This document shows, in pieces, positions 1 through 6,114 of a stretch of 64,000 bases of DNA. Position 1 is the stretch's first letter. Each line of letters begins with the position of its first letter. Both the position numbers and the translations under genes were made by a program. The notes beneath the pieces were generated by a model that was not told where the DNA came from, made no database searches, and saw only the letters and a program-made list of their open reading frames with translations. Source of the stretch: an uncultured Candidatus Saccharibacteria bacterium (lineage in GTDB: Bacteria > Patescibacteriota > Minisyncoccia > Phycocordibacterales > UBA9973); NCBI GenBank assembly GCA_964527185.1, contig CAZGOI010000001.1, positions 6,010 through 70,009 on the forward strand. Direction: 5' to 3'.

Positions 1-1239
1 ATGATTCTCATAGTTGCGGGACTCACTATAGCTTTCTCGAAAAAAATAAAAAATATCCAAAAAATAATCGTAGCCGAAACCACAGCACTCGCTGGTGCGA
101 CAACTGAATCGCTTCGCAATATCGAGCTCGTCAAAAGCCTGGGGCTGACCATGCAAGAAGTCGACCGACTCAACGCCACAACAGAAAAAATCTTGCTGCT
201 TGAACTAAAAAAGTTGCGCTATTTGAGGACGCTGGATTTTATCCAAGGTACAGTGACCAATCTGGTTCGTGCAGGACTATATCTATTCCTTTTCTATCTT
301 ATCTTCACCGAGCGCATTACTTTTGGGCAATATGTTTCTCTAAATATTTATTCTTTCTGGTTATTCTTCCCTGTCGGACAAATCGCCGCCTATATTGGTA
401 CGTACAGGCAAGCCGAGGCCTCGCTCATCAACTACTCGACCCTTATGAAAACGGCGCCTGAACCAAAAGCACCTAACCCAACGATGATAGGGGGAGTGTC
501 TAACCTTGAATTTAGAGATGTCTCTTTCTATTATCGCTCGAGTGTATCGGTACCGGCGCTATCTAACATCTCTTACAAAGTGAACAAGGGCCAAACCATT
601 GCCTTTGTCGGGCCTTCGGGTTCGGGCAAGACATCGCTCATGAAACTCTTAGTCGGCCTCTATACACCGACATCAGGATCTATCTATTACAACAGTATTG
701 CTTATGACAAAATAGACAAAGAAGAACTTCGAACACAGATCGGGTTTGTTACCCAAGATACCCAACTTTTTTCTGGGACGATCAGAGAAAATTTGCTCTT
801 CGTTAACCCAAAAGCAACTGATAAAGAATGCTTGGATGCACTAGAAAAAGCCCAGTGCCAAAATCTGCTCGAGCGCGGAGGCAAGGGACTCGACACCGTC
901 ATAGGCGAAGGTGGGGTCAAAGTCTCGGGCGGAGAAAAGCAACGCCTGTCTATTGCCCGAGCGTTACTTCGAAAACCAAAACTTCTTATTTTTGACGAAG
1001 CGACGAGCGCGCTCGACACACTGACCGAACAAGAAATTTCAAAAACAATTAAATCAATCGGTGAAGCGAGTGAGCATGTTACTATTTTGATCGCTCACAG
1101 ACTCTCGACCATCATGCACGCTGACCATATCTATGTACTCGAAAAAGGTTCGGTCGTCGAATCTGGCTCGCACCAGAATCTGATAGACCAAAAAGGACTC
1201 TACGCCGCCATGTGGCGCGAACAGATCGGAGAGAAATAA
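1..1239 (+). CDS. ABC transporter permease/ATP-binding protein, C-terminal part (5' end truncated by the window edge); exporter type with fused TMD-NBD
   Basis: Walker A GPSGSGKTS, ABC signature LSGGEKQRLSIARAL, Walker B LLIFDEATSALD and H-loop AHRL. A TM region precedes the NBD. The ORF is open from position 1. Confidence 0.85.
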   Translation: MILIVAGLTIAFSKKIKNIQKIIVAETTALAGATTESLRNIELVKSLGLTMQEVDRLNATTEKILLLELKKLRYLRTLDFIQGTVTNLVRAGLYLFLFYLIFTERITFGQYVSLNIYSFWLFFPVGQIAAYIGTYRQAEASLINYSTLMKTAPEPKAPNPTMIGGVSNLEFRDVSFYYRSSVSVPALSNISYKVNKGQTIAFVGPSGSGKTSLMKLLVGLYTPTSGSIYYNSIAYDKIDKEELRTQIGFVTQDTQLFSGTIRENLLFVNPKATDKECLDALEKAQCQNLLERGGKGLDTVIGEGGVKVSGGEKQRLSIARALLRKPKLLIFDEATSALDTLTEQEISKTIKSIGEASEHVTILIAHRLSTIMHADHIYVLEKGSVVESGSHQNLIDQKGLYAAMWREQIGEK

Positions 1240-1247
1240 AAATTAAA

Positions 1248-2177
1248 TCATCTTTCTATTAAAACCTTCTTGAGTTTATATCCATTGCAATGAGAAATAA
1301 TTCCAAGATATGATTGTAGAGTTTCATTTGATAATTTTCTTCTCGCTTTTTTTAGTATTCTTCTCTTTGTATTAGTACGCAATACTTTATAATGAGGTAA
1401 AATAATGTACCCTAAAAAGTCAATTCCTTGTGTCACTTTTCTAATTTCTACTTTTCGTGGATGAAGAGGTAGATTTAGTCTTTCTTTCAGAAACAAAGAT
1501 ATATCTACAATAAGAGATTCGAGATATCTTTTATCATGAGATATAACTACAAAGTCATCAGCGTACCGTATGTAGTATTTTGCTTTTAATCTATGTTTCA
1601 TGTGCTGATCAAATTCATTGAGGTAGATATTTGAAAAGAGCTGACTAGTAACATTCCCAAGTGGTAATCCTTTACCTCTAGATTTTTCAAAGCTTTGAAT
1701 GATATTTTTTATAAGCCATTTGGTATTCTCGTCTATATAATTTTTAAAAAGTATATTTTGTAGTAAGGAGTGATCTATCGAGTCAAAAAATTTTGAAATA
1801 TCGCATTTGAGAACCCATGTAGGTCTAGTATAATTTTTACTCTCTTTTCTTATAAAATCTTCAAGTCTTTGTACTCCTTTATGAGTACCCTTACCAACTC
1901 TACATGAATACGAATCATGAATAAATGATTTATCATATACATGGTAAAGAACTCTATATATTACTTGGTGGACAACCCTATCTCTAACTTGTGACTTATG
2001 GATATGTCGGCGCTTTGGATCGTAGACATAGAATGATATATATGGCTGATTTGTATATGTTTTGTTGACTAATTCATTATGTAGTGAGAAAATATTTGAT
2101 TCTAAATTAAATTCAAATTTTTGAATATCTTTCTTTTTAGTTTTACCCTTCCTGAATTCTCGCCATGCTCCGAGCAA
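1248..2177 (-). CDS. Diversity-generating retroelement (DGR) reverse transcriptase, bRT-like
   Basis: The 309-aa protein has an RT palm with YADD (RYADDFVV). Its motif 4 reads LPLGNVTSQLFSNIYL, i.e. the DGR-specific [ILV]GxxxSQ in place of the group II QG motif. The N-terminus (AWREFRKGK) and C-terminus (GIDFLGYIILPHYKVLR) parallel Bordetella phage bRT. There is no maturase or endonuclease domain. A cognate TR/VR pair lies adjacent. Confidence 0.9.
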   Translation of the reverse strand: MLGAWREFRKGKTKKKDIQKFEFNLESNIFSLHNELVNKTYTNQPYISFYVYDPKRRHIHKSQVRDRVVHQVIYRVLYHVYDKSFIHDSYSCRVGKGTHKGVQRLEDFIRKESKNYTRPTWVLKCDISKFFDSIDHSLLQNILFKNYIDENTKWLIKNIIQSFEKSRGKGLPLGNVTSQLFSNIYLNEFDQHMKHRLKAKYYIRYADDFVVISHDKRYLESLIVDISLFLKERLNLPLHPRKVEIRKVTQGIDFLGYIILPHYKVLRTNTKRRILKKARRKLSNETLQSYLGIISHCNGYKLKKVLIER

Positions 2178-2304
2178 ATTTGAAAGAGATGTGATAGTAT
2201 GAAAAATATCACTATGAGTACCCCCCCCCCGACAAACTATTGAGCTTCCTATTATCGGTCATATAAAAAGAGTATACAAAATTATCTACACAATCGGAAC
2301 AGCA

Positions 2305-2592
2305 ATGCCGAAACACCACAAGCTTGGTATTCATAAAACAATAGAAGAAAAATGTCTCGCAATTCTATCGCTCTCGATCGACTGTGCATTGCGACCGAAA
2401 CAAGAAAAATCACATCTTGTAGCAACTTTACGCATAGAAATAGAGACACTAAAGCATCTCATTCGTATGGAAAACGAATTAGGAATTATTAAAGAAAAGA
2501 CATATCTCACTATTGCCGGTTTATTACAAGACATATCTATGATGGCAACCGGCTGGCATAAATCACTTCAAACACAAAAGCCCCTGCTCTAA
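2305..2592 (+). CDS. Avd-like four-helix-bundle accessory protein (23S rRNA IVS-protein family), short or truncated; opposite strand to the RT
   Basis: The C-terminal half (ATLRIEIETLKHLIRMENELGIIKEKTYLTIAGLLQDISMM) follows the IVP/Avd pattern A.GSL.EL.yhL.l...LGYI...Y..L....vs.ML.gL. It lies between the RT and the TR. It is only 95 aa, whereas Avd is usually about 110-130 aa. Confidence 0.45.
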   Translation: MPKHHKLGIHKTIEEKCLAILSLSIDCALRPKQEKSHLVATLRIEIETLKHLIRMENELGIIKEKTYLTIAGLLQDISMMATGWHKSLQTQKPLL

Positions 2593-2606
2593 GCAAGGGC
2601 TTTGCG

Positions 2607-2726
2607 AGAAACTTCTGACGAAGACCATAATCCGCATTACGGTTGTCACGATTGTCGTAGCTCACGTTGAACTGACCATTAGTGTTCCGGTTCATGTTCA
2701 TGGCGTTGCTATTAGAATCAAGAGCT
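2607..2726 (-). repeat. DGR template repeat (TR)
   Basis: The 110-nt core 2617..2726 aligns without gaps to 2974..3083. All 16 mismatches fall at T on the plus strand here, which is A on the minus (coding) strand. In the target frame the TR encodes AAC/AAT/GAC at the positions that vary in the VR. Confidence 0.85.
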
Positions 2727-2914
2727 TATCTGTATATAACCATCTACTCACCGTGTGTCGTATACACGATACACTGTGTTACACAGCTTGAGCTGGCTTT
2801 GTTTGAAATAATATATCTCCAGTTATACACAGGCAGTTTCTAAATAGTGGCAAACTATCATCTTTTTACAGACTAGCTTTATAGCCAAACTTAGTATATA
2901 TAAAAAAGTACACT

Positions 2915-2944
2915 TCACAAAATTTCGCAAAGTGTACAAGATAA
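2915..2944 (-). other. Inverted repeat/hairpin immediately 3' of the VR and stop codon: possible terminator and/or DGR homing-associated hairpin
   Basis: gtacactt-N14-aagtgtac forms an 8-bp perfect stem 16 nt downstream of the target stop codon, followed on the minus strand by a T-rich run. Confidence 0.4.
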
Positions 2945-2959
2945 AAAAAAATAAAAGGA

Positions 2960-3709
2960 TTAGAAACGAACTTGACGAAGACCATAACCCGCATTACGGG
3001 AGCCACGATTGCCGTAGCTCACGCCGAACTGACCAAGAGTGTTCCGGCACATGCTCATGGCGTCGCTATCAGAATCAAGAGCTGCAAAACGGGTTAAGCC
3101 TTTTACATCATACATCTTGCCGGTTTCAGTACGCTCACGGAATGCAGCAATCATGCCTTCAATCGGAATCATGAAAGTAATACTTTCTGCAATACCATCA
3201 TCGTAGCTTTTATTCAGCATGTCTGGCTCAAGCCCACCGATGTGGGCTATAACGCGGTCACCTGCTGGGCGATTTTGTTGCTCTTTTATAGCCTGGTCAA
3301 TGCTCTGCCATGCTTTCCAAACTGAATCCTTACCAAATTTTTTAGCATACGCTTCAAATACCTGATTGCAGGTAATATCTGCGAAAATGTATTCGATGCG
3401 TTTAAATGCATCGACTTTTTCTGGTAGGGTTACCTTTGTCCAGTCAATTGTACGGCCGAAGAATTTCTTGTAAAAAACTTCAATGCGTTTCTTCTCTTCA
3501 GTCCATTGGTTGGCTTTAATCCCGAAAATTTCTTCACAGAACTTTTCGGTCAACTTCTCAATTTCATGTTCAGGACTCAATACCAAGTGATTGGCATCTT
3601 CAAAAGAAAGTTTTCTGCTATCTCCAAGGATACGGGTAACAGTTCCAGCGATTTTGAAACCCACTGCGGACAGCTGTCCGTAACCGGCAGGGTTGAATTG
3701 ATTTGTCAT
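2960..3709 (-). CDS. DGR target (variable) protein, C-type-lectin/FGE-like fold predicted from the VR-encoded C-terminal motif
   Basis: A 249-aa ORF with the VR at its C-terminus. The terminal …GYGLRQVRF resembles the canonical …GFRxV end of CLec-fold DGR targets. No signal peptide is visible. Confidence 0.8.
   Translation of the reverse strand: MTNQFNPAGYGQLSAVGFKIAGTVTRILGDSRKLSFEDANHLVLSPEHEIEKLTEKFCEEIFGIKANQWTEEKKRIEVFYKKFFGRTIDWTKVTLPEKVDAFKRIEYIFADITCNQVFEAYAKKFGKDSVWKAWQSIDQAIKEQQNRPAGDRVIAHIGGLEPDMLNKSYDDGIAESITFMIPIEGMIAAFRERTETGKMYDVKGLTRFAALDSDSDAMSMCRNTLGQFGVSYGNRGSRNAGYGLRQVRF
2962..3083 (-). repeat. DGR variable repeat (VR) at the 3' end of the target gene
   Basis: Near-identical to the TR. 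It differs only at positions that are adenines in the TR, and it encodes the last ~40 aa of the target (…ALDSDSDAMSMCRNTLGQFGVSYGNRGSRNAGYGLRQVRF*). Confidence 0.85.
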
Positions 3710-3810
3710 TTGACTCCTCCTTTTGTTTTAAATTAGAAAATAACTATCTAGTATTTACAAATTATAAATACACGAGTCTGGCAGAATTATACACCTAAAT
3801 AGACTTTTTG

Positions 3811-4566
3811 TCAAATATAAATAGCCTTATAAAAAAGGGTTATCTGACCAGCATCACCAAGTGAGGTAAAAAATTCTGGCTCTGTTTTGATACCCGCTGG
3901 TAGAATATTATATTCTTTCACCATTTCCTCTACCCTTCTCACTACTGCAGGTGCAGGGTCGATAATATTTACTTTATCTCCTAAAATTTTTTTGATGCGA
4001 TTTATGAGGAAAGCATAGTGGGTACAGCCGAGTACAAGCTGATCAATATTTTTCTCTATTAGTGGTTTTAAATATTTTCGCAAAAGTTTTTCAGCTTCGT
4101 CACTATCTCCCCTTCCATCTTCGATGAGTTCGACGAGTCCGTCACCAACTACTGTATGGACTTCTACATTACTAGTAAATCGCTCGATCGTATCATGGAG
4201 TTTCTGCCCTTCTGCCGTGACTTTTGTGGCGAGTACACCAATATGCCCAGTCTTCGAATTTTCGCTTGCGGGTTTTACCGCAGGTTCAATTCCTACGAAT
4301 GGCACATCGTATTTATCACGCAGGGTCGATATGGCTGCCGAGGTCGCAGTATTACAGGCAACTACTATGAGTTTGCATTTTTTTTCTATTAGAAAATCTG
4401 TGATATCGCATGAGTACTTTATAATCTCCTGGCTAGTATGGTTACCATAAGGGACATGGGCCTGATCGGCAAAATATATATAGTGATAGTTAGGCAACTT
4501 TTCAGTCAGATACTTAAGTATAGAAAGCCCCCCGATGCCAGAATCGAAAATGCCAATATTATTCAT
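3811..4566 (-). CDS. murI: Glutamate racemase
   Basis: IGIFDSGIGGLSIL at the N-terminus, VVACNTA and GCTHY motifs; about 250 aa. Confidence 0.9.
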   Translation of the reverse strand: MNNIGIFDSGIGGLSILKYLTEKLPNYHYIYFADQAHVPYGNHTSQEIIKYSCDITDFLIEKKCKLIVVACNTATSAAISTLRDKYDVPFVGIEPAVKPASENSKTGHIGVLATKVTAEGQKLHDTIERFTSNVEVHTVVGDGLVELIEDGRGDSDEAEKLLRKYLKPLIEKNIDQLVLGCTHYAFLINRIKKILGDKVNIIDPAPAVVRRVEEMVKEYNILPAGIKTEPEFFTSLGDAGQITLFYKAIYI

Positions 4567-4570
4567 GGGA

Positions 4571-5260
4571 TTATTTTACCACAATCAACTTCTTTGGTGA
4601 TTTGGTAAGTGGAATGCACCCTGCATCTGTTATATGGCAAGTGTCTTCTATCCTTATGCCCAATTTATTTTTTATATAAATCCCGGGTTCGATTGTAATA
4701 ATCATATTTTCTTTTAGAACTGGGCGAGTCTTTTTATAATATATCCTAGGTGTTTCGTGAATCTTAGTACCGACCCCGTGCCCAAGAGTATGAATAAAGT
4801 TTTTGGAATATTTACCTAAAAAATTTCTAACATATGCATCTAGGCTTGCGCATTTCTCGCCTATATTTGCTATATTTATTGCGCCTTGTTGAGAGGCAAG
4901 TAATTTATTATATAAATCTTTTTCTTTTTTGGTTGGTTTACCTATATAGAGAGTCCGTGTCATATCCGACATGTACTTTTTATATACCACGCCAAAGTCG
5001 ACAATAACAAATCCAGAAAGTTTTTTATCGAGCGGATCAAAAGGGTGAATTTCGTTGCCGGCATGCCTGCCTGAAGTAACGATAGGTTTAAAACTTGGCT
5101 TTAGTTTTCTTTTTTTAATCTCATAGAGAATAGAGTCGCGAAGTTGTCGTTCGCTAATATTCTTGAGATCTTGTTTTAAAATATTTTTAAAAATGGCATC
5201 CGTTGCTTGGCATGCCATTTTTATTTTTTTAATTTCGCTTTTAGTTTTTATCTGGGCCAT
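4571..5260 (-). CDS. M24 family metallopeptidase (methionine aminopeptidase-like pita-bread fold)
   Basis: Metal-ligand pattern D..D (VIVDFG…SDMTRT), HGVGTKIHE, TIEPGIY and IRIEDT; 229 aa. Confidence 0.7.
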   Translation of the reverse strand: MAQIKTKSEIKKIKMACQATDAIFKNILKQDLKNISERQLRDSILYEIKKRKLKPSFKPIVTSGRHAGNEIHPFDPLDKKLSGFVIVDFGVVYKKYMSDMTRTLYIGKPTKKEKDLYNKLLASQQGAINIANIGEKCASLDAYVRNFLGKYSKNFIHTLGHGVGTKIHETPRIYYKKTRPVLKENMIITIEPGIYIKNKLGIRIEDTCHITDAGCIPLTKSPKKLIVVK

Positions 5261-5263
5261 TGA

Positions 5264-5683
5264 TTAGTGCCAAGCACCGAGAATTAATCCGAAAACTGCA
5301 AATGTTAGAAATTGCGCACCAGTAGAAATCCAGAACAATTTCCAAGCCATTTTTTTTGATTTACCACTCCAAAGTGCCGCACCAGCCGTTGTTGTCATCA
5401 CAAACCCAAACCAACTGCATAGAGCAATCGCAATCGCAGGAACACTTTTGTCCCCCCAATTTACTATGTGATAATCTAGAACTCCAGCTGTAATAAGTGA
5501 GAGCACAAATTGCAAAAAATACATTCCGCCCATGCTTTTTTTCATGGCTGCTTTCTGTTCTGGGCTCATCATGTCTGCGCCCATTACCTTCATATAAGCC
5601 TTACCAAAGATTGGCCCATACCACAAAAACCCTACGACCATTGCTGCTATACCACAAACCAAAACCGCAACATAATTAATCAT
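5264..5683 (-). CDS. Small membrane protein, DUF1761-like
   Basis: The WYGPIFGKAYMK motif and 3-4 TM helices. The start was chosen at an internal Met (MINYVAV) because the long ORF would overlap msrB. Confidence 0.5.
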   Translation of the reverse strand: MINYVAVLVCGIAAMVVGFLWYGPIFGKAYMKVMGADMMSPEQKAAMKKSMGGMYFLQFVLSLITAGVLDYHIVNWGDKSVPAIAIALCSWFGFVMTTTAGAALWSGKSKKMAWKLFWISTGAQFLTFAVFGLILGAWH

Positions 5684-5733
5684 AAATTTGTAATAATATT
5701 TATAATTTTTGCAGGGACTGGCTGCAAATATTG

Positions 5734-6114
5734 TCAGCTGCTTTTCTCCAAATCGAGAGCGCAAGAATTCATGCAAAAGCGCTGTCCGGTTGTTTCGCGC
5801 GGACCATCGTTGAATTTGTGGCCCAGGTGCGCGCCGCAGTTTGCACATACAACCTCGGTACGATTCATGCCGTGGCTCGTATCATCTCTAAATAAAACTG
5901 CATTGGGCAAAGACTCATCAAAAGACGGCCAGCCTGTACCAGAATCGAATTTTTTATCCGAAGAAAAAAGTGGGTTGCCGCAGACTTTGCAATTATAGGT
6001 CCCATTTGCTGTCTCTTTATAATACTTGCCAGAAAAAGGAGCTTCAGTTCCCTTTTCTTGGGTCACATGATATTCTTCGGAAGTCAATTTTTTCTTTAAT
6101 TCTTCTTTATCCAT
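5734..6114 (-). CDS. msrB: Peptide-methionine (R)-S-oxide reductase
   Basis: SelR domain with two CxxC pairs (CKVCGNPLF … CANCGAHLGH) and GTGWPSF. Confidence 0.9.
   Translation of the reverse strand: MDKEELKKKLTSEEYHVTQEKGTEAPFSGKYYKETANGTYNCKVCGNPLFSSDKKFDSGTGWPSFDESLPNAVLFRDDTSHGMNRTEVVCANCGAHLGHKFNDGPRETTGQRFCMNSCALDLEKSS

Follow-up and report, generated by a model that had tools for sequence, protein, structure and literature searches.

Organization of the DGR locus

The analyzed window, i.e., the whole 64-kb stretch of DNA from an uncultured Candidatus Saccharibacteria bacterium, carries a DGR with a target gene and its variable repeat (VR), a template repeat (TR), an avd gene and a reverse transcriptase (RT) gene. 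The positions of these features, together with those of a homopolymer, hairpins and promoter-like elements discussed below, are collected in Table 1.

Table 1. Features of the DGR locus, ordered by window position (+, forward strand; -, reverse strand).
Feature	Position	Strand	Remarks
DGR reverse transcriptase	1248..2262	-	337 aa from ATG 2262-2260 if the tract is G9
Promoter-like TTGAAA-16-AAAAAT	2180..2207	+	ends 6 nt before the avd ATG; weak
Full avd gene	2214..2592	+	from conserved ATG 2214-2216, reads through the C tract
Antisense overlap of the avd and RT 5' coding ends	2214..2262	both	
C10/G10 homopolymer	2221..2230	both	Pro codons in avd, Gly codons in RT
Coding region of Avd helix 1	2248..2301	+	residues 11-28 of the 2218-2589 translation; same frame as the 95-aa ORF
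TATACT, -10-like hexamer	2271..2276	-	exactly 8 nt upstream of the RT ATG
95-aa ORF flagged initially	2305..2592	+	Avd helices 2-4; begins at an internal Met codon
12-bp hairpin between A run and T run	2577..2603	both	avd stop codon in the loop; ~10 nt after the TR 3' end
Template repeat (TR)	2616..2726	-	111 nt
13-bp hairpin and T run	2908..2937	-	~23 nt after the target gene stop
DGR target gene	2960..3709	-	249 aa, no Pfam family
Variable repeat (VR)	2973..3083	-	3' end of the target gene; only VR in the window

In the assembled sequence, the RT is open only as ORF 1248..2177 (309 aa from an internal TTG), such that conserved RT N-terminal residues (GGG-THSDIFHTITSLSNLL) are encoded upstream of this TTG. 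The ORF matches RVT_1 (E=3e-26) and carries the motifs LGNVTSQ and YADD. Its best NCBIfam match is a group II intron RT, which scores under the cut-off of that model in a set without a DGR-specific RT profile. The VR covers the last codons of the target ORF, and 14/14 TR/VR mismatches are located at TR adenines when read on the minus strand. Given these 14 adenine substitutions in the VR, the element was active in the past. No second VR was found within the 64-kb window, and an Rfam scan of window positions 1-6000 returned nothing in the DGR region. A CAGAAGTTTCT motif on the minus strand at the TR 3' end (window 2604-2616) is nearly invariant across loci with otherwise differing TRs; it may be an IMH*-like or an RT-recognition element.

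The avd gene lies between TR and RT and is antiparallel to both, which share the minus strand with the target gene. The first-pass annotation had described this arrangement correctly and had offered a degenerate accessory gene, a mis-oriented remnant or a variant architecture as its cause. [quoted passage not shown] 2018 (PMC5758913). Order and orientation of target/VR, TR, reverse avd and RT as well as the host group are the same, and the B3 CPR DGRs correspond to DGR clade 2 of Roux et al. 2021 (PMC8144416). That is, the reverse orientation of avd is the published B3 layout and neither a remnant nor new. The term variant architecture holds only in relation to the Bordetella phage prototype BPP-1, whose DGR is of type B1 (avd-TR-RT). 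There, avd is co-directional with and upstream of the TR, whereas the window avd converges with the TR and diverges from the RT. Furthermore, a long spacer leads from TR into RT in BPP-1, while a terminator-like hairpin follows the TR within ~10 nt in the window. In both cases, avd is adjacent to a DGR RT and to a TR/VR pair whose differences are adenine-specific.

A comparison with related genomes, as had been proposed initially, recovered the same layout in all fetched relatives, which are cellular, i.e., Patescibacteria MAGs or metagenome contigs, and 27 strains were found to share the homopolymer. No relatives of the locus were found among viral contigs. One relative that lacks the homopolymer (L044) shows two candidate target-like genes (557-1306, 249 aa, and 3165-3992, 275 aa) that flank its RT-avd pair, compared to the single target of the window locus.

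Identity and start of the avd gene

The 95-aa ORF starting at ATG 2305 is present with the sequence quoted in the first-pass annotation, which had assigned it to the Avd/23S-IVS pattern with one helix apparently missing. The Avd part of this assignment stands: the ORF matches Pfam family PF22296 (bAvd) with E=6.4e-9 and 36.7 bits (cut-off 40 bits) and NCBIfam model NF033474 ('DGR protein Avd') with E=2.6e-10, under the curated cut-off of the latter. On the other hand, profile search with PF05635, the family named initially and a sister of PF22296, gives no match at E<=1 for either the 95-aa or an extended 124-aa form (see below). Both the PF22296 and the NF033474 match start only at profile position 21, and roughly one helix is indeed absent from the ORF as drawn.

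This helix is not missing from the locus, since it is encoded in frame directly upstream of the flagged ORF. The reading frame remains open upstream as far as 2218, in a stretch that contains no ATG, GTG or TTG. The extended translation (2218-2589, 124 aa) reaches 44.1 bits for PF22296, i.e., above the cut-off of 40, with profile positions 6-106 of 107 covered, and spans positions 1-104 of 104 in NF033474 with 51 bits compared to an equivalog cut-off of 80 bits. AlphaFold2, supplied with an alignment of homologues, models the 124-aa sequence with a pLDDT of 88.3 and a pTM of 0.80 as four helices (11-28, 32-58, 61-87, 93-118). A search for PDB entries by sequence with the family profile matched nothing, and a fold search was used instead. 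Here, Foldseek superposes the model on Bordetella phage Avd (4dwl) with TM-scores of 0.76/0.87, an rmsd of 1.9 and probability 1.00; the two proteins are bundles of the same size with ~15% sequence identity. The Avd chains of the DGR RNP 8ub7 and Xcc0516 (2gsc) are also found with probability 1.00. For the PF05635-related structures 2gsc and 2rld, the likeness to the model is one of fold only. The structure prediction suggested in the first-pass annotation thus agrees with an Avd, and the extended protein is predicted to be a complete four-helix bundle.

We also compared the avd starts of related loci. Among the closest database homologues, 24/32 are likewise called at 95 aa from the same Met codon. 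Two others, P0002 (128 aa) and P0004 (126 aa), begin with MNSTPPR... and MNMTPPR..., respectively, and then run into helix 1. In-frame N-termini of the form M-x-x-T-P-P-R are found in P0002, P0004, P0050, P0053, P0077 and P0101, and full-length calls in the wider family (310 proteins, E<=1e-3) begin with M..PP(P), e.g., in P0050, P0053, P0077, P0087, P0093, P0094 and P0101. The wider family also has members that are in frame and free of the tract (P0063, P0072, P0080). At nucleotide level, the same ATG is directly in frame in the tract-less loci L012, L044 and L045 (ATG AAT AAT GTC ACC TCC ACC CGA) and L020, and the RT of tract-less relatives is called at 343 aa. Matches from tblastn in 29 related loci reach back to the first residues of the extended Avd query, and in 15/24 loci no canonical start is available between the tract and the helix 1/2 boundary. 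The apparent truncation of avd in the window comes down to a 1-nt frame offset in a conserved C tract located between ATG 2214 and helix 1.

Sequence variation in helix 1 amounts to 0.228/0.137/0.376 for codon positions 1/2/3. For the part of the RT N-terminus upstream of the avd ATG, the respective values are 0.298/0.175/0.419. The excess at the third position is the pattern expected of translated sequence in both cases.

Given these observations, a degenerate or remnant Avd of three helices, translated as 95 aa from ATG 2305, is barely credible and the least so of the explanations considered. The many homologues called at 95 aa from the same Met codon would fit such a remnant, but these calls in part reflect gene finders that avoid an RT overlap: for L031-L036, avd is in frame at a tract length of 9 and still called at 95 aa because of the overlapping RT call. 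Furthermore, helix 1 is conserved as protein in every locus, and the Met position of the flagged ORF is Ile or Leu in other relatives. With helix 1 encoded under coding-type variation, a predicted four-helix bundle and a B3 orientation, the initial suggestion of a degenerate or mis-oriented gene is not upheld. That is, the flagged oddity is ordinary: the layout is the known B3 one, and the Avd is complete.

Across the family, conservation is highest in the C-terminal Avd segment (ISMMATGW...QTQKPLL, window 2527-2589). Since this segment runs into the stem of the hairpin following the TR, its conservation may be partly RNA- or terminator-driven.

A homopolymer shared by two antisense gene starts

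The C10 run begins 4 nt past the avd ATG codon and provides avd codons 3-6. About the first 16 codons of avd and of RT are mutually antisense, and the Met start codon of each gene is complementary to a His codon of the other. Due to this codon-register overlap, an in-frame avd implies an RT that is in frame from ATG 2262.

We simulated tract lengths n=8-12 in the window sequence and translated avd from ATG 2214 and RT from ATG 2262-2260 (minus strand). For n=9, both genes are full-length, i.e., an avd of 125 aa (MSTPPRQTIELPIIGH...) and an RT of 337 aa (MTDNRKLNSLSGGGTHSDIFHTITSLSNLLGAW...) are obtained, and n=12 yields 126 and 338 aa, respectively. The assembled length n=10 results in 9 aa for avd and 16 aa for RT, and only short peptides are encoded by either gene for n=8 or 11. 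Translation of avd as well as RT thus has to pass one homopolymer, the length of which determines the frame, and the assembled state puts both out of frame. Since both ATG frames stop early at n=10, the misleading ORFs of 95 and 309 aa appear in their place.

For the RT, this coupling is not universal. A canonical start upstream of the tract is available to the window RT in the n=0 mod 3 phase only, while many relatives have such starts in two or three phases. The RT is therefore gated by the tract in the window and not in all relatives. We also scored the RT as 'ON' whenever any in-frame ATG/GTG/TTG exists upstream of the tract; this score is uninformative and was dismissed, given that ~70% of all phases qualify compared to 79% at the observed lengths.

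The frame dependence of avd would vanish if it were translated from a non-canonical start downstream of the tract (e.g., ATT 2239, ATT 2251 or ATC 2254), which would turn the tract into avd 5' UTR. In support of this, the NCBIfam Avd model has its first position at Leu 2245, translation from ATT 2239 gives a protein of canonical length, and 'ATTGA' is kept in most relatives. Nevertheless, we regard such a start as very improbable. The ATG-x-x-Thr-Pro-Pro N-termini are in frame in many relatives, tract-less ones included, the frame is open although the distance from the tract to IELP varies, and distant relatives have no ATT at the respective position. In addition, the RT still has to read through the tract.

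Conservation of the tract

A run of 7-12 C's is found at the same place in the 27 related strains, down to ~41% Avd identity. The tract-bearing relatives are MAGs of Saccharibacteria, Nomurabacteria and Paceibacteria, and distant lineages at 41-46% identity carry the tract as well. In nearly every locus, 'ctATGaa..' is followed by the C's after 4-7 nt (18-22 nt in some distant lineages).

Long G/C runs are otherwise rare in these sequences. The tract is the only G/C run of at least 7 nt in the 64-kb window, followed by four C6 runs, and apart from the tracts themselves, 259 kb of related loci contain just one, a G7. Within the long ORFs of the window, CCC makes up 10.6% of the Pro codons and GGG 14.1% of the Gly codons. 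The existence of tract-less relatives implies that neither PPP nor GGG is required. That a pure homopolymer is retained even though both are dispensable points to selection at the nucleotide level. In part, the purity could also be explained by dual coding in the same register, where Pro CCC lies opposite Gly GGG, although the tract-less relatives speak against this.

Candidate transcription signals

Neither the avd nor the RT ATG is preceded by a Shine-Dalgarno sequence. Most relatives show TATAAT where the window has the TATACT hexamer in front of the RT, and TGATAAAAT-like motifs are located 8-10 nt upstream of the avd ATG in the window (2195-2207, plus strand) and in relatives. This suggests that avd and RT may both be transcribed as leaderless mRNAs with overlapping 5' ends, although the motif conservation is confounded by coding constraints. 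A promoter in the divergent region had been proposed for checking by the first-pass annotation; a promoter scan of 1900-3000 yielded 4 matches compared to 5.1 expected from shuffled sequences, i.e., it gives no statistical support for a divergent promoter.

The hairpin next to the TR is strong and is present at the same position in 20/20 folded relatives with differing stem sequences. Here, we relied on folds of the individual sequences, since the MAFFT-based alignment for RNAalifold was poor. The hairpin resembles a bidirectional terminator placed between avd and TR, which are convergent. In that case, the TR RNA would be a short separate transcript and not part of the RT mRNA. The second hairpin, downstream of the target gene, represents a terminator or else corresponds to the inverted repeat found after VR/IMH in other DGRs.

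Length variation and frame states

We compared tract lengths between consensus assemblies of the same strain, i.e., with 100% identity over the 400 nt flanking the tract on either side (547 nt altogether for the third strain). Within the strain covered by L031-L036, the lengths are 9, 9, 9, 10, 9 and 9. The second strain (L025, L037, L038, L039, L040 and L041) shows lengths of 9, 10, 9, 9, 11 and 14, and L049 differs from L001, the same strain by its flanks, with 9 compared to 10. All of these are true indels and not substitutions of the next base. RT gene calls alternate between 339 and 308 aa in step with the tract length.

Part of this variation is technical. Three or four contigs, among them L005, L042 and L043, break off at the tract, the sequence past it is garbled in L040 and L041, and L049 (n=9) has a coverage of 1.7x. 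The observed breaks, the implausible lengths of 11-14 in the garbled contigs and the low coverage of L049 would also be in line with a true tract length of 9 throughout, with the extra base being a sequencing or assembly error in an ordinary and constitutively in-frame B3 DGR; moreover, the two assemblies of the window's genome probably derive from the same reads. We consider this improbable as a full account. Out-of-frame lengths recur with clean flanks in independent projects and with independent assemblers (10 in each of L046, L047 and L048; 10 in both L051 and L052), the differences are indels as stated above, and we know of no systematic +1 bias of short-read consensus sequences at runs of 9-10 nt. 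Even with wrong lengths, one would have to explain why an unstable pure homopolymer is kept across deep divergence. As a side observation, assemblies of public metagenomes repeatedly run into trouble at the tract, with contig breaks and garbling.

Frame states were scored relative to the conserved avd ATG for 27 strains, where L031, which has two adjacent ATGs, was assigned to the in-frame state by hand. Most strains are in the +1 state, with one C/G in excess of the in-frame length (17/27), six are in the -1 state (6/27) and four are in frame (4/27), an uneven distribution (chi-square p=0.004). Lengths of 9 (10 strains) and 10 (11 strains) predominate. For loci whose in-frame length is 8/11, 6/7 have a tract of 9, and for loci whose in-frame length is 9/12, 10/13 have a tract of 10. 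That is, the tract length follows the phase needed and not an absolute length (Fisher p=0.017).

Such a preference of phase over length (6/7 and 10/13), together with the excess of the +1 state, would fit programmed recoding. There, the +1 configuration would be the normal functional state from which full-length Avd (and RT) is made at a set low level. This could be achieved by RNA polymerase slippage that drops one nt on the homopolymer of 9-10 nt, or on the ribosome shortly after the start codon, where tRNA-Pro on CCC-C (tRNA-Gly on GGG-G) would slip by +1. A CCC-C close to a start is prone to +1 shifts, and the tract occupies avd codons 3-6, possibly on a leaderless mRNA. Precedents exist as well: conserved poly(A) frameshifts are rescued by transcriptional slippage in the reduced endosymbiont genomes of Blochmannia and Buchnera, and prfB with its +1 frameshift is mostly shifted and sometimes in frame across bacteria. 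As in these cases, the offset studied here is conserved in most relatives, with some in frame. In contrast to them, the tract varies in length, occurs in all three phases and consists of C/G. Further arguments against recoding are the strains in the -1 state (6/27) and in frame (4/27), tract lengths that differ between identical strains, unlike those of fixed recoding sites, and a zero frame that has neither a stop nor a rare codon directly at the slip site. In addition, documentation of slippage is scarcer for G/C runs than for A/T runs. Altogether, we rate programmed recoding as rather unlikely, with a chance that is still appreciable.

A candidate switch of DGR protein expression

Our best reading combines the gene models with the behavior of the tract. 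The flagged ORF would be the 3' three-quarters of an intact canonical avd of a CPR-type DGR, and the tract a slippage-prone switch on DGR protein expression; taken jointly, we judge this to be probable on balance. In this mechanism, the tract would change its length at the DNA level by slipped-strand mispairing. Avd, and in the window also the RT, would thereby be switched off and on in a reversible and stochastic manner, and with them mutagenic retrohoming. An Avd is by definition a pentamer that binds both the RT and the DGR RNA, and in the Bordetella phage system it is essential for cDNA synthesis. The length changes would have to be genuine events in vivo that can revert and that serve switching. 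What the locus reveals, pending read-level confirmation, is a C/G tract, conserved and variable in length, that the overlapping avd and RT starts have in common, i.e., a DGR combined with a putative simple-sequence switch or recoding site.

There are observations that a slippage-prone switch does not readily account for. The excess of the +1 state and the tracking of phase are not predicted by simple unbiased switching, and the excess fits programmed recoding, or a bias, at least as well. Furthermore, the lengths derive from consensus sequences, and assemblies are demonstrably unreliable at the tract. For a generalization across CPR/Patescibacteria, i.e., a hypermutable C/G tract in the avd/RT overlap that switches targeted hypermutation on and off, or throttles it, in a heritable and stochastic way, we are more tentative and see a possibility that falls somewhat short of probable. 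If true, it would constitute a phase-variable mutator with which a lineage diversifies its target protein and then locks in a useful variant. A conserved slippage tract that sets the frame of Avd, and here of the RT too, would provide a specific mechanism, open to testing, for the bacterial group richest in DGRs.

Comparison with known systems

The tract shares one hallmark of contingency loci, i.e., a homopolymer of at least ~7 nt in the 5' coding region whose length sets the frame. The poly-G/C contingency loci (8-13 nt) of Campylobacter, Neisseria, Haemophilus and Helicobacter are likewise G/C homopolymers, compared to 7-12 nt here within 5' coding sequence of an AT-rich genome. In-frame and out-of-frame alleles occur among strains in both, and at our locus, going by the assemblies, possibly within strains as well. 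The G-tract pilus switch of Bifidobacterium breve (PMC9187656) belongs to the same class of simple-sequence contingency loci. Known contingency loci gate surface structures or restriction-modification, while the tract studied here would gate a mutagenesis machine. They also differ from our locus in that a single tract is here part of two antisense-overlapping frames and resides in a CPR bacterium, a group for which we came across no account of such a tract. Control of two divergent genes by a single repeat, as proposed here, has a parallel in Haemophilus influenzae, where one TA repeat controls the divergent hifA/hifB fimbrial promoters. The latter is a dinucleotide that acts on promoter spacing, in contrast to a mononucleotide that acts on the frame.

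The cited B3 DGR literature (PMC5758913, PMC8144416) is silent on overlapping 5' coding ends, a homopolymer and frame states. More generally, the literature covered does not link DGRs to homopolymers, slipped-strand switching or avd/RT frameshifting; this excludes Paul et al. 2017 on CPR DGRs, where a prior mention is possible.

Independent of how the tract works, it affects annotation. Gene callers systematically report Avd fragments of ~95 aa (24/32 close homologues) and wrong RT starts. Because of such errors in Avd and RT, surveys that score DGRs as 'complete' or 'degenerate' from annotations misjudge CPR elements.
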